DNA of 42,002 nt. Source: a virus (lineage: Duplodnaviria > Heunggongvirae > Uroviricota > Caudoviricetes). Positions 6,683 to 39,444 of this stretch are shown here, piece by piece. The notes below the pieces were generated by a model that made no database searches, was not told where the DNA came from, and saw nothing but the letters and a program-made list of their open reading frames with translations. Numbering within the stretch: the first letter of the stretch is position 1; each line of letters starts with the position of its first letter. The stretch is taken from IMG/VR virus record IMGVR_UViG_2563366918_000005; one strand, 5' to 3'. Position numbers and translations under genes: made by a program.

Positions 6683-6699
6683 ATTACCTTTATGGTAAT
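6683..6699. promoter_or_regulatory. Operator palindrome ATTACCTTTATGGTAAT
   Basis: Perfect 6-5-6 inverted repeat in the divergent tailspike / ant-like intergenic region. Confidence 0.5.
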
Positions 6700-6735: not shown

Positions 6736-6755
6736 TACTGTATAAATATACAGTT
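6736..6755. promoter_or_regulatory. LexA (SOS) box TACTGTATAAATATACAGTT
   Basis: Perfect CTGT-N8-ACAG with AT-rich spacer; about 20 bp upstream of RBS GGAG (6763-6766) and ATG 6775. Confidence 0.7.
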
Positions 6756-7192: not shown

Positions 7193-7346
7193 ATGTGTAA
7201 AGCGCACCTATTCTATGGTGGGCTGTGTGGGGGCACCGAAAGGTGCGCCGGGTTCCTTTGTAGCCGGTAAGACCAACTCTGCACAGTTCACCACCATCTG
7301 ATTGGTCTCAGCGGTGGTGATTAACCTAACTACAAAGGTGATCGCC

Positions 7347-8039
7347 ATGAATACCAAACCTTCCATCTTTTCCTTTGAGTCATCCTGCCAGATCCGTATG
7401 TTCATGATTGACGGAGAACCTTGGTTTGTCACCAAAGATGTGTGCAATGCTTTGAATATTGATGTTACACAAGCGAGAAAACTTGATAAAAAAGGCTGGA
7501 ACAAAAAGGGGCTGTATTCAATACAGACCCCTGGTGGAATACAAGAACTATCCATCGTTTCAGAATCAGGTCTCTACATCCTTATTCTGCGTTGCAAAGA
7601 GGCAATGACTGAGGGAACGAGAGCATTCAGATTTCTTGAATGGGTTACAGGCGAGGTTCTTCCTCAGATCCGCCGCACCGGAAGTTACATTAAAAACTCG
7701 CTACCGCAGGAAGAACGCATAAAGATGGTTGCCGACCAGGTAGCCAACGCCACGGCGTCAGCAGTAATGCAGGCGATGAAGATAGAGAACAAAACCTACA
7801 ACGCCCCGCTGAAGCCCGGCTACCGCAGCCTGATTCATTCCCCGTCTGGTGTTCTCGGCCTGACGGAGAACTCACTGCTGATGAATCTGCTGAACCAGTT
7901 ACAGGAAGACGGGCACGACGTATCGGGCGCGGCGGCGGAGCTGACCACCATGTTCTGCTACATCGTCGGTGTGAGCAAATGCCTGCGTGATATCCAGACG
8001 CACGCGGAGTACATCAACGACAAAGCAGGGTTCTTCTGA
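7347..8039 (+). CDS. Antirepressor (N-terminal BRO-N domain, C-terminal Ant/KilAC domain)
   Basis: RBS GGTGA 5 nt before ATG 7347; N-terminus FSFESSCQIRMFMIDGEPWFVTKDVCNALNI matches the BRO-N pattern; C-terminal domain paralogous to 6775..7032. Confidence 0.7.
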   Translation: MNTKPSIFSFESSCQIRMFMIDGEPWFVTKDVCNALNIDVTQARKLDKKGWNKKGLYSIQTPGGIQELSIVSESGLYILILRCKEAMTEGTRAFRFLEWVTGEVLPQIRRTGSYIKNSLPQEERIKMVADQVANATASAVMQAMKIENKTYNAPLKPGYRSLIHSPSGVLGLTENSLLMNLLNQLQEDGHDVSGAAAELTTMFCYIVGVSKCLRDIQTHAEYINDKAGFF

Positions 8040-8882: not shown

Positions 8883-9044
8883 ATGAAAAAAGCATTTGCT
8901 GCACTGTTCGTTTTGTTGTCTCTGGTAGCTTCAACTCAGGCTTTTGCCGGTCGTTGTCAGCACGACAGCGATACTGCCGCTGACGGCTCCCGCTGCGGTG
9001 GGCGTTCTGCGGATTCCCGCCCGGGTGGCGGTGGCATTCGTTAA
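8883..9044 (+). CDS. Small secreted Cys-containing peptide (hypothetical)
   Basis: Internal start of track ORF 8811..9044: MKKAFAALFVLLSLVASTQAFA then a 31-aa Gly/Arg/Asp-rich region with 2 Cys; weak RBS. Confidence 0.3.
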   Translation: MKKAFAALFVLLSLVASTQAFAGRCQHDSDTAADGSRCGGRSADSRPGGGGIR

Positions 9045-9046
9045 AA

Positions 9047-9066
9047 ACAAGGCCGCGAAAGCGGCC
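9047..9066 (-). terminator. Terminator at end of late virion operon (between convergent units)
   Basis: GGCCGC-GAAA-GCGGCC hairpin with T-run on the minus strand. Confidence 0.5.
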
Positions 9067-16360: not shown

Positions 16361-16905
16361 TATAATCCTCCGGGTAATCTGGTTCCTGCTGCTGCCCCGA
16401 TTGGCGCAGGGGTGCTTTGAGTAAACGGACTCCACGTCCCACCAAACATCTGGTACGCACCGTATGCCTTCAGAGGCGCAGTGAGCAATGTTGTTGCTGC
16501 TCCCACATTCCCCTGTTTACGGGCTGAACTGGCTTCTGCTTTATAGTTGGCAGCCTGAACCTGATAACCGTAAGCCTCGCGTTGCGCGTTATTCGCCGTC
16601 GTCAGAGAATCAAGAGCGCCAAACTGGGCAGTGTCGCCAAATATATCCAGCGCGTTACCTGTAGATAAATCAGCGCCGGTAGCCCCCATTGTCGCCGCCT
16701 GTGTACCAAGCCGCTGTCGGGTCTCTCTGCGCCGTTGCTCAGCTTCAGCGTTACCTCTGTTTATTGCATCATTTGCCTGAGCTGTGGCTATATCTGCGTT
16801 CGCTTCTGCAACCTTCGAGGCATACTTTCCCTGTTGGTACTGGGTGTATGCCTGAATGCCACTCATGGCGAGCATTGCGCCACCAGCAATAACCGGATCG
16901 CACAT
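16360..16905 (-). CDS. Virion protein (T7 gp14-like position)
   Basis: 181 aa, Ala/Gly/Gln-rich; coupled within the late operon. Confidence 0.45.
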   Translation of the reverse strand: MCDPVIAGGAMLAMSGIQAYTQYQQGKYASKVAEANADIATAQANDAINRGNAEAEQRRRETRQRLGTQAATMGATGADLSTGNALDIFGDTAQFGALDSLTTANNAQREAYGYQVQAANYKAEASSARKQGNVGAATTLLTAPLKAYGAYQMFGGTWSPFTQSTPAPIGAAAGTRLPGGL

Positions 16906-27864: not shown

Positions 27865-29340
27865 CTAAGCATATGGATCGTACTCGGTAAGCGCCTTGCC
27901 TTGCTGGTTCTGCTGCCCGGGAAGTCGCAGGCGCTTTGACACCGGGAAAGCAAACGTCAGCAGTAGCGCATCGCCTTTACCAGGCGAACGCCCAAGTCGT
28001 TCTTTGATATCTTCCTTCGGTTCGATAACGATTTTACCGTCCACGCGAACTTTGTACTCTGCCGCCGACAGATCGTCCGCTGTTTCCTGGTCATCCAGCA
28101 TCCCGCCCAACCTCAGCCATGTCTTGCATGAGTTGAACATCTCCCCGCGCTTGTTGAGCATCTGAGGGTCAGTTGACGCACCACCGAACGGAACAAGTTG
28201 CCATGTGCGCCCCCAGCCGTCACCGATTGACTTCAGACCGGTTCCGTAACCGAAGTCGATGAACACCGCGTCAGCCTGATACTGGTCTTCAAAGTCAGCG
28301 ATACGCTTCGCCATAATCAGATCGTCAGTGGTCTTGTTGCCAGTCCATAGCACCTTACTATGCAACCCCTGCCGCAGGTATATCACCGCGTCATCAACGC
28401 CTGAATATGCCGGGTCAACACCGATTATCACCGGAGCATGTGCCACCTGCGCAGCGGTTACCACCCGTTTCATTGCCTCATCAGTAAGACCGGTAGGGAT
28501 AAACTGCAATTCAGATGCATCAGGGAATATGCCGCGCACACGGATTTTAACGAAGTCGCTGTCTTCCCCGTAGTCATCAACCCATTTCTGCAACTGCTGT
28601 TTGTTAGTACCTTCCACCGTCCGGCTGTCAATCTGCGCAGTTTTCCAGCGGTGTTTGTATTTGCGGAAACATTCGCGAAAACGCCCGGTATTACGTGTAG
28701 GGTTTCCGAACGCCACCCAGATAATCTCAGTGTCTTCGTCCGTAAGCGCACCCTCAGCAACTTCCCACACCAGATCCGCAATGTTCGACGCTTCATCGAA
28801 TACCACGATGATGCGTTTGCGCTCGTTGTGTAGTCCGGCGAATGCCTCAGTGTTGTGCTCAGACCAGGGGATTGCGTCAGCTCGCCACCGCTTGTCGTGC
28901 CCAGGATCATTGCTGTACATCGCGGTAGCGGTACAGGTAAACCAGTCTTTCGTGATAGCAAGGTTCGACCACTTGATAATTTCCGGCCAGGTCTTCGTTC
29001 GTAGCTGGTTGTCGGTGTTGGCGGTCACCACGACCTTACAATCCTCGCAAGTGGACATGCCCCAGTTGATCAGCATTGAGATGAATGCGGATTTACCAAT
29101 ACCGTGACCAGAAGCACGTGCCAGCATAAGCGGCTGATAACGCGTCTCTGGATTCTGCAGGTGATCACGTATCTCTCGGAACGCATCGGCCTGCCACTGA
29201 CGTGGGCCGGTAGCATGTGCCAGTTCAGTCCCCTCTTCCCCCCACGGGAACGCATAGAGGGCATAGCCAAGCGGATCGTGAGTGAACCCTGCAATATCCT
29301 CGATTAACTGCTCTTCAGGAGATAACGCTGTATCTGTCAC
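27865..29340 (-). CDS. Terminase large subunit
   Basis: 491 aa; Walker A-like ARASGHGIGKS; GTG start overlapping terS stop; convergent with the accessory gene (4-bp stop overlap). Confidence 0.85.
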   Translation of the reverse strand: MTDTALSPEEQLIEDIAGFTHDPLGYALYAFPWGEEGTELAHATGPRQWQADAFREIRDHLQNPETRYQPLMLARASGHGIGKSAFISMLINWGMSTCEDCKVVVTANTDNQLRTKTWPEIIKWSNLAITKDWFTCTATAMYSNDPGHDKRWRADAIPWSEHNTEAFAGLHNERKRIIVVFDEASNIADLVWEVAEGALTDEDTEIIWVAFGNPTRNTGRFRECFRKYKHRWKTAQIDSRTVEGTNKQQLQKWVDDYGEDSDFVKIRVRGIFPDASELQFIPTGLTDEAMKRVVTAAQVAHAPVIIGVDPAYSGVDDAVIYLRQGLHSKVLWTGNKTTDDLIMAKRIADFEDQYQADAVFIDFGYGTGLKSIGDGWGRTWQLVPFGGASTDPQMLNKRGEMFNSCKTWLRLGGMLDDQETADDLSAAEYKVRVDGKIVIEPKEDIKERLGRSPGKGDALLLTFAFPVSKRLRLPGQQNQQGKALTEYDPYA

Positions 29341-29933
29341 TGATTACCATCCTGACGTTCTTTGAGTCGCTTCCTGGCTGCTGCTATGCGATCAGCAATT
29401 GTCACATTCACATTAACATCCAGACGTTCTTTGAACGCGTTGACATCAACATGCTTACCAATCAGCTCAAGGTTCTTCACCTTGTCAGGCCATTTAATTT
29501 TTTTGAGGATTGTCTCTATCGAATCCTCGTTCATGTTCATGATGGTCGATGACAAATCAAAGCCACTAAGCGTAGTGCGCCAGATTTTCGGCCACTCACG
29601 GATTGGTTTAAGGCTCCCATCGTCGTTGAGGATGTCGATCACGTCCATCTGGTCGATCTGCACCAGGCGCATGAGAACGTAATCAGCACTGACGCGCATT
29701 CGTTTGTTGCGCTCCTCCATCAACTCGGCAATCCGTTTTTGAATGCGTTCATCGCGCATCATGACACTGGCTTTAACTGCCGCTGTATTTGGGGAGAATC
29801 CTGCGTTAATCGCTGCCTGAGTCTGGTTTTCAGGCGTTTTGATGTATGACTGGCAATAAGCCTCCTGCATTGCTGTTAGTGGCTTAAATTGCGTTGATTT
29901 GCGTTTATAGGTTTTAGGTTCAGCAGGCATCAT
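29337..29933 (-). CDS. Terminase small subunit
   Basis: Start placed at the MMPAEPK Mets (29933/29930, RBS GGTGG); the longer track ORF (to 30011) would read through an upstream terminator and repeat region; about 198 aa. Confidence 0.6.
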   Translation of the reverse strand: MMPAEPKTYKRKSTQFKPLTAMQEAYCQSYIKTPENQTQAAINAGFSPNTAAVKASVMMRDERIQKRIAELMEERNKRMRVSADYVLMRLVQIDQMDVIDILNDDGSLKPIREWPKIWRTTLSGFDLSSTIMNMNEDSIETILKKIKWPDKVKNLELIGKHVDVNAFKERLDVNVNVTIADRIAAARKRLKERQDGNQ

Positions 29934-29940
29934 AACCACC

Positions 29941-29969
29941 GTGGTAATAGTTACCGTTGTGGTAATAGT
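29941..29969 (-). promoter_or_regulatory. Two direct repeats GTGGTAATAGT just upstream of terS (late control region candidate)
   Basis: Copies at 29941-29951 and 29959-29969, between terminator and terS start. Confidence 0.3.
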
Positions 29970-29976
29970 ACCATGC

Positions 29977-30002
29977 AAAATAAAGCCGCCATAGTTGGCG
30001 GC
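29977..30002 (-). terminator. Terminator between nin-like operon and late (terminase) operon
   Basis: GCCGCCA-ACTA-TGGCGGC hairpin followed by TTTATTTT on the minus strand. Confidence 0.5.
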
Positions 30003-30051
30003 AGTATTCAAAACCCATCAAATTCATCATGCATAATCTACTCGTGACATG

Positions 30052-30390
30052 TCACACTATTAATTTCGTTTCATGCCAGCCTTTAGTCACCCAGCATTGC
30101 GAGTCACCATTACACGGGCATGAATTAACTGGAACTCTCTCGCCGCACTTACCGCAACATTTTCTGCTGATCGATTTTATACGCCCGCGCACGCGTGCAT
30201 CATCCTGGCGGATCAGTAACGCTATATACTCACCAAATTCGTAAGGCGCACGCCCGGGGCGACGCGTGGCACAGTTACGCTCCAGCATTTCAATTTCCTG
30301 AGCATCAAGCACAATTTCCAGCTTACGCACACCAGATGCAGCTTGTCTGGCTCTCTGAGCGGCTTTGCGCTCTGCTGCTGATTTAGCCAT
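30052..30390 (-). CDS. Hypothetical Cys-rich (zinc-binding?) protein; late-regulator candidate
   Basis: 112 aa; RBS AGGAAA before ATG 30390; C-terminal CCGKCGERVPVNSCPCNGDSQC cluster; last gene before the late operon. Confidence 0.45.
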   Translation of the reverse strand: MAKSAAERKAAQRARQAASGVRKLEIVLDAQEIEMLERNCATRRPGRAPYEFGEYIALLIRQDDARVRGRIKSISRKCCGKCGERVPVNSCPCNGDSQCWVTKGWHETKLIV

Positions 30391-30736
30391 TCTGATTTTC
30401 CTGCATCATGAGGAAGACAATCATGGCGGCGCGGAGAACATTTTCATGCTCATGCTCCCAAATATGGTTGGCAGAAGCACCGTGCAAACCGCTTTCGTTC
30501 CAGTCCCAGAGAATGTTAACTCCGTTATCAGCAATAATCGGCCATGAGGCGCTCGGATCATTGCAGTAGTCAGGTAAAGGGTTTAATGGCTCGAAAGTTG
30601 TATCAGCATTTCCGTAATACCATTTGTTGGTGTTATTCCCTGACGTTTCCGGTTTACATGCCCAAAGGCCTTTAAAAATTATGTCTCCTACCATTCTGTT
30701 AATTTCAAAATCACTTAACTGTGAATAGTCCATCAT
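30383..30736 (-). CDS. Hypothetical protein
   Basis: 117 aa; RBS AAGGTGG; coupled to neighbours. Confidence 0.45.
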   Translation of the reverse strand: MMDYSQLSDFEINRMVGDIIFKGLWACKPETSGNNTNKWYYGNADTTFEPLNPLPDYCNDPSASWPIIADNGVNILWDWNESGLHGASANHIWEHEHENVLRAAMIVFLMMQENQNG

Positions 30737-31437
30737 TTCGCCACCTTCGGAGGTTCTGGTAGCGGCATCCAGTGGGTTACACCGCCAATTGGCTCATCGT
30801 CGTCGTACTCCAATGCGGCTATATAGAACCCGTCACGACGAGAATAAGAAATCCCTGACATTACAATGCCATCCGAAACAACAATAATGTCACCCGTTTC
30901 TTCCGGCATTCTCTCACTACAGCTTATCCAACCATCCGGAGTTACCGGAGAGTTGCCCGACAGCTTGTTCAACTTGTAAGTCTGGCTTACAGGTTTGGCA
31001 CCATGAAGCATGGCGTCGCTCCGCTCTATGCCATCCAGCGCGATTCGCAGTGCCTGAATTGTGGTAATGCTATCGTTTGGGGCTATTCCATATCGCTCGA
31101 ATACAGCGATATGACCGCGCATAATCTCAGGCGTAAGCTCTTTGTAAGCATAAGCAAGCGACCCTGATGCCTCATCCGGCACAACCGACGCAGGCGCGGC
31201 AGCATAAACAGGAATAACGTCCGCTTGCTCTTTATTGCTTTCATCCGTTAAAGCCCAGAATAATTTCCCGGCCGGATGTTTGAAAATATAAGCAACTGGT
31301 TCTGCTTCCAGCGATGCCAGAGCAATTCGTGCCAGTTCTTCCGCTTCTTCTGCTGGCAGTACAACGTTGCTACCAGGTCCGTATGTTTCGCGCCACTGTT
31401 TGATTGTCAGTAGTCGCTCTTTGGTAATAGTGGTCAT
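30733..31437 (-). CDS. Hypothetical protein with DUF551-like C-terminal domain
   Basis: 234 aa; C-terminus …THWMPLPEPPK typical of DUF551 as remembered. Confidence 0.45.
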   Translation of the reverse strand: MTTITKERLLTIKQWRETYGPGSNVVLPAEEAEELARIALASLEAEPVAYIFKHPAGKLFWALTDESNKEQADVIPVYAAAPASVVPDEASGSLAYAYKELTPEIMRGHIAVFERYGIAPNDSITTIQALRIALDGIERSDAMLHGAKPVSQTYKLNKLSGNSPVTPDGWISCSERMPEETGDIIVVSDGIVMSGISYSRRDGFYIAALEYDDDEPIGGVTHWMPLPEPPKVAK

Positions 31438-31439
31438 AG

Positions 31440-31631
31440 CTATTTCACCTTAATCTCAACATTTCGCAGCTTTAGCTCTACTGGCAGGTCTGACTTTCCG
31501 GTTAATGCTAATGCGAGATTTTCTGGAGTAATGAGAGCCGTTATTGTTTTCCCCATCGCCAGACGAATAGTCATTCGTATCTCGCGATCGTCACATGCTC
31601 CCGGTCGAACAATTGAGATTTGTCCGTTCAT
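31440..31631 (-). CDS. Hypothetical small protein
   Basis: Start at ATG 31631 with strong RBS GGAGAG; 63 aa. Confidence 0.4.
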   Translation of the reverse strand: MNGQISIVRPGACDDREIRMTIRLAMGKTITALITPENLALALTGKSDLPVELKLRNVEIKVK

Positions 31632-33408: not shown

Positions 33409-33425
33409 TTTACCCCTGAGGTAAT
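33409..33425. promoter_or_regulatory. Operator palindrome TTTACCCCTGAGGTAAT
   Basis: Abuts the ATG (33406) of the nuclease-like gene. Confidence 0.45.
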
Positions 33426-33470: not shown

Positions 33471-33487
33471 ATTACCTAACAGGTAAT
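33471..33487. promoter_or_regulatory. Operator palindrome ATTACCTAACAGGTAAT
   Basis: Perfect 6-5-6 palindrome 62 bp from the previous site. Confidence 0.5.
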
Positions 33488-35112: not shown

Positions 35113-35376
35113 TCAGCTTGAATGTTGTGGGGAGGAATTAATCATGATCTGCTTAATCTCTGCCCTGATACGACGGTTTGATTCCATGGTGCACTCAACA
35201 CAGTGTCCGTTGTAAACCCAGCGTTCACTGTCATGTCCGTGCTTACATGTTTTTCCGGTGTAGTAGCGTTTAAGTCCGCGCTTTGCGGCATCAATACGTG
35301 TAATGATTTCCATGGTAAGCCCTGTTATTAGTATTGGGATTACGGTCATTTTGTGCTGACACAAAAAAAATATCAA
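35113..35376 (-). CDS. Small Cys/His zinc-ribbon-like protein (hypothetical)
   Basis: …YYTGKTCKHGHDSERWVYNGHCVEC…; start uncertain (35376 or internal Met at 35313). Confidence 0.4.
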   Translation of the reverse strand: MIFFLCQHKMTVIPILITGLTMEIITRIDAAKRGLKRYYTGKTCKHGHDSERWVYNGHCVECTMESNRRIRAEIKQIMINSSPQHSS

Positions 35377-35777: not shown

Positions 35778-35794
35778 TTTACCTGTTGGGTAAT
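35778..35794. promoter_or_regulatory. Operator palindrome TTTACCTGTTGGGTAAT
   Basis: Near-perfect; with the two adjacent sites forms an OR-like triple operator between cro-like and repressor genes. Confidence 0.5.
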
Positions 35795-35848: not shown

Positions 35849-36433
35849 ATGAAAAGTATCCAGGACGTCCGCAGGCAAAATCTCAACGACTTGATCGACC
35901 GTGAATTCAATGGTGTTCAGACGCGGATGGCAGAAAAACTTGGAACTCAGGCAAATCTGGTAAACCGCTGGGCTCTTGGCAAGAAGGTTATCGGCGACCA
36001 GGTTGCACGAAAAATTGAAGCTGCCGCCAATAAACCCCGTAACTGGCTTGATATTGATCGCTCGCTTTCTCAGGAGGGTTTTCAGCCTGTCGGCCCGAGC
36101 GATATAGGTCAGCTGGCGGCTCACAACCTGGAACGCTGGATGAGCGAAAGCCGCGACCTTTCAACGCAGGGAAAACTACACCGCGCATCCGGCGTCGCCC
36201 AGGTGACAATCAGCCGCCTGTTAAACAATGAGGTCAGCGTTTCCATTTCCACCCTGGAGAATGTTGCATCCGCATTCGGGCGTCACGGCTATGAATTACT
36301 GATTCACCCGCACGACCCTGCGACCATCAACTATGATCGCTCGCGCTACGCATTGTTACCCGAAACCGAGAAAGCAAAGATCGAAAGTTACATTGAATTT
36401 GTCATCAACCAGAACGAAAAAAACAAACAATAA
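35849..36433 (+). CDS. Immunity repressor candidate with two HTH domains, no peptidase domain
   Basis: 194 aa; HTH-like segments (…QTRMAEKLGTQANLVNRWALGKK… and …LHRASGVAQVTISRLLNNE…); no Ala-Gly / Ser-Lys autocleavage module seen; sits between operator clusters. Confidence 0.6.
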   Translation: MKSIQDVRRQNLNDLIDREFNGVQTRMAEKLGTQANLVNRWALGKKVIGDQVARKIEAAANKPRNWLDIDRSLSQEGFQPVGPSDIGQLAAHNLERWMSESRDLSTQGKLHRASGVAQVTISRLLNNEVSVSISTLENVASAFGRHGYELLIHPHDPATINYDRSRYALLPETEKAKIESYIEFVINQNEKNKQ

Positions 36434-36489: not shown

Positions 36490-36506
36490 ATTACCTAATG
36501 GGTAAT
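36490..36506. promoter_or_regulatory. Operator palindrome ATTACCTAATGGGTAAT
   Basis: Perfect 6-5-6 palindrome upstream of -35 TTGACA. Confidence 0.5.
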
Positions 36507-36524: not shown

Positions 36525-36552
36525 TTGACATCAAACCAGATACGCATAATTA
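36525..36552 (+). promoter_or_regulatory. PL-like early promoter (TTGACA-16-TAATTA)
   Basis: -35 TTGACA 36525-36530, -10 TAATTA 36547-36552, bracketed by operators. Confidence 0.5.
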
Positions 36553-36568
36553 TTACCTCAACGGTAAC
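36552..36568. promoter_or_regulatory. Operator ATTACCTCAACGGTAAC
   Basis: Overlaps the -10 / +1 of the PL-like promoter. Confidence 0.45.
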
Positions 36569-39144: not shown

Positions 39145-39444
39145 GTGAGAAAGTTAAGCCGACTTGAAAAATATCACATGAACAAGGTTTCAATGCGCAG
39201 CCCTTCAAAGGTTGTTGCCGTTACTCCTGCGGCGATAGAGATCGAAAAACGCGCGATTGAAAGAGAGAAAAAAGGGCAGTTCCGCATTGCCGCCCACCTT
39301 TGGCTTCAGTGTATGGATGTTGCTTCTGGTGATGTTGAGCGTGCAAGGATCGCGGTTCGCAGGGACCAATGTATCACAAAAGGTAACGGCCTTCGCCGTG
39401 GCGACTATAGCGGCATAGGATGTTGCGGGGTGGTTTATGACTAA
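39145..39444 (+). CDS. PerC/ANR-like small regulator (hypothetical)
   Basis: 99 aa; …AAHLWLQCMDVASGDVERARIAVRRDQC… resembles PerC-family pattern; GTG start. Confidence 0.4.
   Translation: MRKLSRLEKYHMNKVSMRSPSKVVAVTPAAIEIEKRAIEREKKGQFRIAAHLWLQCMDVASGDVERARIAVRRDQCITKGNGLRRGDYSGIGCCGVVYD

Follow-up and report, generated by a model that had tools for sequence, protein, structure and literature searches.

A cysteine-rich ribbon-helix-helix protein and a candidate palindromic site at the early/packaging gene junction of an epsilon15/phiV10-type phage

Introduction

Among the described control systems, the lambdoid Q module is one of those closest in layout to the locus treated here, at which the early-right operon of a temperate phage ends and its packaging genes begin. 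The locus lies in a window of 42,002 nucleotides (nt; the whole stretch of DNA that was analysed, IMG/VR record IMGVR_UViG_2563366918_000005) and is formed by the gene of a 112-amino-acid (aa) Cys-rich protein, a 12-bp palindrome (P1), an intrinsic terminator (T1) and two direct repeats, after which the small terminase gene, terS, begins. As in the Q module, the product of the last early gene is a small protein that binds DNA and presumably zinc, the DNA site adjoins the gene and is separated from the late genes by an intrinsic terminator, and further terminators interrupt the late region. On the other hand, the protein has no sequence or fold similarity to the Q families and is of the ribbon-helix-helix (RHH) class; the site has neither a credible late promoter nor a sigma-dependent pause element, only a weak 9/12 sigma-70 match being present; the palindromes recur at operon ends, and the distance from site to terminator is variable.

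Another system to be compared is the MatP-matS pair of the bacterial host, which in E. coli organises the Ter macrodomain and unloads MukBEF. The consensus of matS is GTGACRNYGTCAC, or GTGACATTGTCAC in E. coli (PMC6907758, PMC8669397). The phage palindrome has the identical GTGAC/GTCAC pentamers as inverted half-sites, it would likewise be recognized by an RHH-containing dimer, and a handful of sites are dispersed in each genome. It differs in its length of 12 bp, with a spacer of 2 bp instead of 3, so that it corresponds to matS minus one central bp. The protein differs as well: it is phage-encoded, in an early lytic operon, carries a Cys cluster, has only one helix before the RHH domain and lacks the four-helix bundle and coiled coil of MatP.

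A sequence-only reading of this DNA had proposed a late-operon control region with a small zinc-binding regulator. All the elements that it listed (Cys-rich open reading frame (ORF), palindrome, terminator, direct repeats and terS) are present on the minus strand and above chance. Its idea of a small regulator stands as far as a DNA-binding protein of regulator type is concerned, whereas there is no support for a dedicated late activator, given that the same module occurs elsewhere together with Q, together with Ogr, and next to xis-int. From the comparisons given below, we hold with good confidence that the palindrome is the binding site of the Cys-rich protein itself, and the direct repeats are very likely operators of the prophage repressor, Rep.

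The Cys-Rich Protein

The Cys-rich ORF is a genuine gene, with 726 homologues in a large protein collection that fall into 152 clusters at 50% identity. Its product is matched over the full length by PHROG 536, "transcriptional regulator" (E = 1.7e-54), a family that includes epsilon15 gp49, phiV10 gp55 and N15 gp46, and whose current annotations are only "transcriptional regulator" or "hypothetical". The profile search suggested along with the sequence-only reading has thus been informative with PHROGs, whereas Pfam has no family for the protein, and no RHH family of Pfam came above threshold in the 58 members scanned. The domain layout comprises a basic N-terminal helix, an RHH domain and a C-terminal Cys cluster (C79, C82, C91/C93 and C99). 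In an alignment of 58 diverse homologues, the basic N-terminal stretch ERKxxQRxR is conserved, with R8 and R13 nearly invariant, as is the helix PY..EY..LI; C79 and C82 are invariant and C99 nearly so, the third Cys position being variable. The protein has the dimerising beta-alpha-alpha fold by which RHH proteins are defined, and a Foldseek search against the PDB gave one RHH protein and otherwise no significant match. It is an RHH DNA binder plus an additional Cys-rich module; this module presumably binds zinc, and we refer to the protein as RHH-Zn. The domain fusions in P0249, P0234, P0158 and P0098 were discarded as functional hints, as they look like gene-calling fusions.

Compared to the known RHH regulators (Arc and Mnt of P22, CopG, TacA, MazE, ParD and TraM), RHH-Zn has an extra basic N-terminal helix besides the C-terminal Cys cluster, and its putative sites are at the 3' ends of genes instead of at its own promoter. 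Homology to MatP, whose E. coli sequence was verified against PDB 4D8J, was rejected with an hhalign probability of 0.9%, and only the resemblance of the sites stands. The family profile compared with PDB sequences had as its top three TraR, TraR and YbiI (E 0.02–0.04; hhalign 59%), and RHH-Zn shares with TraR/DksA a CxxCGxx(L/I)P knuckle after a long helix. There is also a likeness to lambda Orf73 (PMC9239242), as the homologue in L107, a lambdoid prophage, lies in the accessory early region next to xis-int. However, the marks of TraR/DksA given in PMC9239242, namely the DxxDxA N-terminal helix, CxxC-17-CxxC spacing and R48/R49, have no counterpart in RHH-Zn, and none of the 58 family members matched Pfam zf-dskA_traR. 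Membership in TraR/DksA was rejected, since the weak similarity failed a structural test (globular-domain fold) and the defining motifs are missing.

The Ogr/Delta/B proteins of P2-, P4- and 186-like phages are also small Cys-containing phage proteins. The Ogr/Delta Pfam domain gave no match in the Cys-rich family, and the P2 late-promoter element, TGT-N12-ACA, is unlike the palindrome. The Ogr position of vB_YenM_56.17, a P2-like phage of Yersinia, is occupied by another regulator gene, of 72 aa. The P2-like homologue of RHH-Zn sits after gene A, the location of the late activator B in phage 186. More generally, K308-like, Aeromonas, P22-like and P2-like phages also have the gene as the last or one of the last of the early operon, a short way from the genes for lysis, packaging or other late functions, so that this placement recurs in at least four unrelated phage architectures.

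The Palindrome and Its Link to the Gene

The palindrome, GTGACATGTCAC, is present in two exact copies in the window, P1 and P3, against about 0.04 expected for an exact palindrome of 10 specified bases in 42 kb; this expectation is simple arithmetic, and the figure of 1.14 from shuffled sequences refers to matches with up to one mismatch. Exact GTGAC-NN-GTCAC is found in 15 of 21 enterobacterial prophage loci, each from a different species, and in 14 cases it is at the stop codon of the homologue or a few nt from it. The sequence that follows the site differs wholly from locus to locus, being terS, LexA-box morons, other terminators or other ORFs. The association extends to homologues of only 33–40% identity, since the palindrome is also at the stop codon of N15 gene 46 and of the homologues in vB_YenM_56.17 and in a K308-like prophage (L122). 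In Vibrio K308-type phages it is somewhat further downstream of the homologue, and it accompanies the homologue in P22-like phages too. Epsilon15, Tyrion, N15 and K308 have three exact sites each, and phiV10 has two plus one copy with a single mismatch, where chance would give about 0.04 per genome.

The geometry of the site is strict. In eight phage genomes 16 matches had the 2-bp spacing, just 1 had any other spacing between 0 and 6 bp, and 2 had the everted arrangement; the matS-like spacing of 3 bp had 1 match vs the 16, and 13-bp sites are not enriched. The half-sites are invariant, without compensatory changes, and the two central bases vary (AT, AG, AC, CT, GC, TG and CG). Because the half-sites are fixed while the centre varies, the palindrome is better understood as the duplex-DNA site of a symmetric dimer than as an RNA hairpin, a reading that is further disfavoured by its minimal loop. 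Among the phages with the palindrome, the RHH-Zn gene is the sole shared component noticed, without a systematic comparison of gene content, and their terminases, repressors and late regulators are unrelated. A negative control is provided by the moron that abuts the palindrome in phiV10, as its copy in Sf6 has no palindrome. The 12-mer gave no match in the searchable literature, and the pair formed by RHH-Zn and GTGAC-N2-GTCAC appears not to have been described before.

An asymmetric variant, GTGACCGGACAC, is common to an Aeromonas myovirus, phage 14AhydR10PP (L032; positions 251, 3032 and 29428), and a P22-like prophage (L123; positions 5731 and 6359). It lies 13–15 nt ahead of start codons in 14AhydR10PP, that of the homologous gene included, and about 20–40 nt ahead of them in L123. 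Covariation of protein subfamily with site variant was considered and is uninformative: the proteins of the two phages that share GTGACCGGACAC are no closer to each other than to the protein of the window. A similar GGTTAAA ribosome-binding stretch follows the site in 14AhydR10PP and in N15 (L029). Beyond the copy at the gene 46 stop codon, N15 carries the same 12-mer at 28550 and 33237; one of these extra copies is inside repA and the other between gene 33 and an annotated terminator that precedes genes 32–30, presumably the anti-immunity region.

Where the Palindromes Sit

In the epsilon15 group the palindromes are placed at the 3' ends of transcription blocks. P1 comes after the last early gene, and P3 at the end of the structural block, 1–2 nt ahead of a second terminator, T3, for which the phiV10 record annotates a terminator at the equivalent site. 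In phiV10, Tyrion and epsilon15 the structural block closes with the same module of P3-type palindrome and terminator, preceded by last genes that are unrelated to one another. A further site, P2, is found after terL and its terminator in phiV10 (L030, at 2262), epsilon15 (L116, at 2142) and Tyrion (L031, at 2702), as well as in the loci L035–L114 (e.g., L041 at 12601). Comparison of 80 close relatives shows that P2 is the exact border of a hypervariable slot for reverse-strand morons: several inserts abut it, which represent about three gene families and some diverged alleles and all of which have their stop codon 4 nt away from it. The window has a different moron at this position, with neither the terL terminator nor P2. 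In other lineages (L012, L013, L015, L016, L022 and L024) a terminator follows the site after 20–70 nt. LexA boxes were observed after the palindrome in several enterobacterial prophages (L006, L007, L013 and L015).

The Terminator T1 and the Spacer

The sequence-only reading had placed a terminator between the Cys-rich gene and terS, and the terminator scan bears this out. T1 is a GC-rich hairpin with a U-tract, the stem having 7 bp with 6 GC pairs before TTTATTTT, it is present in the minimum-free-energy fold, and its position between the gene and terS is conserved. The stem itself is kept in epsilon15, Tyrion and two further loci (L009 and L010), and the Rahnella prophages L022 and L024 have a different hairpin in its place. 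A search against known RNA families gave only an rseX-like match, which was dismissed for being sub-threshold (27.8 vs 50 bits) and driven by the terminator.

What precedes T1 is far less constant. In the 80 close relatives (87–100% protein identity) three arrangements follow P1. The first is that of the window; in the second, a 70-aa ORF starts 9 nt past the palindrome and ends at the same T1; in the third, found in lambdoid prophages such as L107, there come a 142-aa ORF, a terminator, another ORF, a terminator, xis and int. The 70-aa ORF is intact in about a third of the close relatives, and since the 41-nt spacer of the window matches its 3' end, the spacer is a deletion remnant. The promoter scan gave a single sigma-70-like match in the region, GTGACA-18-CATGAT (30055-30026, 9/12), which runs from the palindrome into the spacer; it was rejected as a designed late promoter and is not credible as one, because it falls in this remnant. 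In the predicted fold of the minus-strand RNA of 29962-30043, the upstream spacer pairs with the sequence just downstream of T1 and encloses the terminator (z = -3.05 vs shuffles), but this pairing is probably fortuitous, since relatives lack the remnant from which it is formed. Near-identical relatives differ by about 190 bp in the distance from palindrome to terS, and between site and terminator there are from 1 to about 240 nt, the spacing of P1 and T1 not being conserved. Ahead of terS, the portal block and the tailspike gene, a simple scan of the coding strand gave no consensus promoter.

The Direct Repeats as Probable Repressor Operators

The direct repeats upstream of terS are two exact copies of the 11-nt GTGGTAATAGT (29941-29951 and 29959-29969), 18 bp apart; with one mismatch allowed, this 11-mer has 5 matches vs 0.43 expected. 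The sequence-only reading had listed them, with the Cys-rich gene, among the parts of the late control region. What the two copies have in common is the half-site of a 17-bp operator, ATTACC-N5-GGTAAT, present twice in tandem (O1 and O2), of which the window contains 14 copies vs 1.18 expected when up to 2 mismatches are allowed. In the epsilon15 RefSeq record, NC_004775.2, seven sites with the sequence ATTACC-N5-GGTAAT are annotated as "protein_bind: repressor", one of them at 12-27, directly upstream of terS, and others before gp3 and the tail-fibre gene. As members of a genome-wide repressor-operator motif, the repeats can hardly be targets of RHH-Zn. Rahnella and Samsonia prophages, too, retain operators immediately before terS.

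The window also codes for Rep, a 194-aa helix-turn-helix homologue of the SPC32H repressor, which is presumed to bind these operators; the assignment rests on the annotation and on the distribution of the motif. As in the epsilon15/SPC32H-type systems, the 17-bp motif is dispersed, at the heads of blocks and over ribosome-binding sites (RBS), with a homologous Rep encoded in the genome. Comparable cases are the operators of P1 C1, which are also dispersed, and the "stoperators" of mycobacteriophage L5 gp71, although the operators of the window are palindromic, unlike the L5 stoperators. The operators at 33409-33425 and 16362-16378 lie exactly over a Shine-Dalgarno sequence, 1–2 nt before the ATG, as at terS, which suggests a recurrent operator-on-RBS design. 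The promoter scan also found a sigma-70-like promoter overlapping the operator at 33471. The coordinates of all these features are collected in Table 1.

Table 1. Positions of the features discussed in the text, in window coordinates
Feature	Position	Strand	Description and basis
DUF1064 gene	33406-33062	-	Early-right operon
Ead/Ea22	32118-31633	-	
DUF551	31437-30733	-	
NinX	30736-30383	-	
Cys-rich 112-aa RHH ORF	30390-30052	-	Last gene of early-right operon
P1	30044-30055		Perfect 12-bp palindrome GTGACATGTCAC; overlaps TGA stop codon of Cys-rich gene; putative cognate site
Spacer, 41 nt	30003-30043	-	Remnant of 70-aa ORF
T1	29977-30002	-	Intrinsic terminator GCCGCC-AACTAT-GGCGGC then TTTATTTT; ends early-right operon before terS; terminator scan
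O1	29950-29966		Operator ATTACC-ACAAC-GGTAAC (coding strand); second repeat copy is a half-site; motif search
O2	29932-29948		Operator ATTACC-ACGGT-GGTTAT; covers Shine-Dalgarno GGTGG and first terS ATG
terS, small terminase	29337-29933	-	Pfam Terminase_2, E=1e-29; TL-2011b annotation; epsilon15 alignment
terL, large terminase	27865-29340	-	PHROG 2 "terminase large subunit", PHROG 5902; annotation of relatives
P3	9068-9079		Second exact copy of GTGACATGTCAC; on stop codon of 98-aa membrane-protein ORF, structural-block end
T3	9044-9066	-	Intrinsic terminator AGGCCGC-TTTC-GCGGCCTTGTTTTT; 1 nt after P3, between convergent genes; read from sequence directly
Rep, prophage repressor	35849-36433	+	194 aa, helix-turn-helix; SPC32H repressor homologue, PDB 5D50, E=4e-42; PHROG transcriptional regulator/repressor families
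Two operators	36490-36506, 36552-36568		Just downstream of rep, head of early-left operon
Operator	35778-35794		Between rep and cro-like gene (PR region)
Operator	35393		Next to rep gene
Two operators	33471-33487, 33409-33425		Ahead of DUF1064 gene
Two operators	26253-26269, 25636-25652		Ahead of portal/structural block; equivalent to epsilon15 site 2931-2947
Operator, 2 mismatches	16362-16378		Weaker; over RBS of internal late gene
Operators	7063, 8104		Antirepressor/moron region
Perfect operator ATTACCATAAAGGTAAT	6683-6699		About 100 nt upstream of tailspike gene; equivalent to epsilon15 site 19895-19911

A Tentative Mechanism and Its Alternatives

In our opinion, the parts of the locus can be brought together in one explanation, to which we give a probability of about 40%. 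In the lysogen, Rep bound to O1 and O2 would keep terS and terL silent with the help of T1, which would stop stray transcription and insulate the packaging genes; Rep would hold all the other blocks silent as well. Upon induction, an Ant-type antirepressor, encoded at 7302-8039 among plus-strand moron genes, is expected to remove Rep. A LexA box, CTGTATATTTATACAG, at 6738-6753, in the promoter region ahead of the antirepressor, where the tailspike gene and the plus-strand morons diverge, suggests that antirepression is under SOS control, as has reportedly been found for SPC32H. Since there is no consensus promoter between T1 and terS, the packaging genes would most likely be reached, for the most part, by transcripts that pass T1. 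The RHH-Zn dimer would bind the palindromes at the 3' ends of blocks, P1 and also P3 immediately ahead of T3, and gate the amount of transcription that crosses the block boundaries. It is the best available candidate for such a gating factor, because it is made last in the early operon and its site stands just before T1 and T3. Once accumulated, it might promote read-through, which would be the logic of Q without homology to Q; we lean weakly towards this last step, although it is less likely than not. The antitermination at T1 that the sequence-only reading contemplated may be brought about by the Cys-rich protein. Since the distance from palindrome to terS varies by so much and the spacer is an ORF remnant, RHH-Zn does not act as an activator close to a promoter; we see in it an accessory module that is portable, and not a universal late switch.

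Read-through is favoured by the position of P1 before T1 and of P3 before T3, by the terminators that come soon after the site in many other lineages, by the lack of Q- or N-like proteins and of consensus promoters in the ORFs and regions scanned, and by the place of the gene towards the end of the early operon in unrelated phages. A number of observations weigh against the explanation as a whole. The module coexists with Q (gp40) in N15 and with the regulator gene at the Ogr position in vB_YenM_56.17, and in a lambdoid prophage its neighbours are xis and int. Most RHH proteins are repressors, and none is known to act as an antiterminator; no RNA-polymerase-binding domain could be recognised in RHH-Zn. 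Moreover, P2 in phiV10, epsilon15 and Tyrion follows the terL terminator rather than preceding it; the next start codon or RBS comes 9–19 nt after the site, with no terminator nearby, in N15, Aeromonas, K308 and some of the phiV10-like variants; and the P2-like phages carry two sites 33 bp apart that resemble a classical operator pair. Five of the 21 enterobacterial loci have the gene without a nearby palindrome, and no variant sites were found in them. Finally, tight gene packing alone may place 12-bp sites against stop codons and terminators.

Several of these same observations would be natural if RHH-Zn were a conventional RHH repressor, damping transcription that passes or starts at the palindromes, with feedback on the distal genes of its own operon and reinforced block ends beside T1, T2 and T3, the late timing being left to Rep, Ant and others. 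Besides the prevalence of repressors in this fold class, the tandem sites of the P2-like phages upstream of a gene, the sites close before start codons and the palindromes next to terminators at the ends of convergent units agree with this proposal. We regard it nevertheless as rather unlikely, as most sites have no promoter signal, a roadblock placed on a stop codon would leave the upstream gene with a truncated mRNA, termination is already given by T1 and T3, and blocking read-through while the protein builds up conflicts with the rising need for late expression. It is improbable that gene and site form a portable tag like MatP/matS or ParB/parS, for DNA organization or for evasion of MukBEF-type structural maintenance of chromosomes (SMC) complexes. 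Half-sites identical to those of matS with one base less in the spacer, the few scattered sites per genome with one adjoining the gene, and the portability over podo-, sipho- and myoviruses and plasmid-prophages, independently of regulatory circuits, would fit such a tag, and the hosts are Enterobacterales, Vibrio and Aeromonas, which we take to be groups that possess MatP. Yet a profile comparison gave no significant match to MatP, both the four-helix bundle and the coiled coil are missing from the protein, nothing connects it with MukBEF, and pure tagging would not need the clustering of sites at operon boundaries.

The proposal of the sequence-only reading, a dedicated late activator or Q-type antiterminator at T1 with the repeats as part of its target, is now very unlikely. 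The order of regulator gene, site, terminator and late genes does mimic Q, qut and tR' of lambda, and no other late regulator was recognised; indeed, as that reading had noted for Q and N, scans of the early ORFs with Pfam or PHROGs did not reveal any protein like either of them. Against it are the membership of the repeats in the genome-wide operator family, the lack of Q, Ogr or Mor/C homology, the location of the spacer "promoter" in a deletion remnant, the unconserved distances from the site to the terminator and to terS, and the coexistence of the module with Q and with Ogr elsewhere. We give little credence to the palindrome being independent of the protein, that is, a recombination or mosaic-junction sequence or a 3'-untranslated-region (3'-UTR) RNA element that hitch-hikes with the gene. 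The palindromes are indeed exact borders between conserved and hypervariable DNA, with varied inserts at P2 and unrelated genes at P1 and P3; they are always in transcribed intercistronic or 3'-UTR positions, and a 5-bp RNA hairpin is possible. However, the invariant half-sites without compensatory changes and with a variable centre have the pattern of a dimer's DNA site, 12 bp are short for homologous exchange, and the palindrome co-occurs with one gene family across phages in which nothing else was noticed to be shared. It is extremely unlikely that the repeats are pac or cosB-like sites bound by TerS. They are immediately upstream of terS, the place that cosB is generally known to have in lambda, and the deposited records of relatives start here, but such starts are a convention of annotators, and the 17-bp motif, present 14 times, around rep and before the tailspike gene included, is centred on the immunity region and annotated as a repressor site in epsilon15.

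Returning to read-through promoted by RHH-Zn, a bolder version would make RHH-Zn and its 12-bp palindrome a new class of portable antitermination device, loaded at a DNA site and carrying early transcription across intrinsic terminators. Such a device would serve several morphotypes, reaching late or accessory genes, with a logic like that of Q/qut and an unrelated fold; this is conceivable but quite unlikely. As a more exotic alternative, the protein may be a phage "mini-MatP" that uses matS-like sites to mark the phage's own DNA against host SMC complexes.

The Phage, the Junction and Neighbouring Features

The window phage is an epsilon15/phiV10-type temperate podophage, whose relatives include TL-2011b, ZX5, phiV10 and O157 typing phages, with 92–99% nucleotide identity over the matched parts (megablast of 29300-31500). 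The genes at the junction are all on the minus strand, in the order DUF1064 gene, Ead/Ea22, DUF551, NinX, the 112-aa Cys-rich ORF, an intergenic stretch of 118 bp, terS and terL, and this order confirms the early/late junction proposed from the sequence alone. For terS there are two candidate ATG codons, 29933 and 29930, the second of which is probably the start. The 98-aa membrane-protein ORF that ends on P3 extends over 9372-9076 of the minus strand.

Some neighbouring genes deserve mention. The early-left operon codes for a PerC-like "transcriptional activator" (PHROG 868; 39145-39444, plus strand), which is another candidate late activator. The cro-like gene is closely followed, near the start of the early-right operon, by the gene of a further small Cys-containing early protein, of 87 aa (35113-35376, minus strand), with a zinc-finger-like motif CxHGH...CxxC, which belongs to PHROG 1081, of unknown function. 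Inside the late region, the moron next to terL and the portal block are separated by a tRNA-Arg gene (anticodon TCT; 25974-26050, plus strand) and a transposase-like ORF (PHROG 720; 26552-27055, minus strand), which are on or near the opposite strand. The PADLOC models of defence systems gave no match.

Conclusions and Perspectives

What had been a vague control region has been resolved into four defined parts. This is of interest for the epsilon15/phiV10 group (Uetakevirus), which takes in O157- and Salmonella-converting phages and whose late control is without a recognised Q-, N- or Ogr-type regulator. The distribution of the 17-bp motif suggests that repressor operators are placed directly on the RBS of the packaging genes and at the heads of most late blocks. 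The predicted pair of the 112-aa RHH-Zn protein and GTGAC-N2-GTCAC concerns about 150 clusters at 50% identity in phages of Enterobacterales, Vibrio and Aeromonas, and the palindromes, as exact borders of hypervariable moron cassettes, are a marker of phage mosaicism. The fact that the phage site is the host matS minus one bp raises a question of recognition between the two. If it is true that the protein gates the read-through of terminators, it would be a new kind of antitermination factor.

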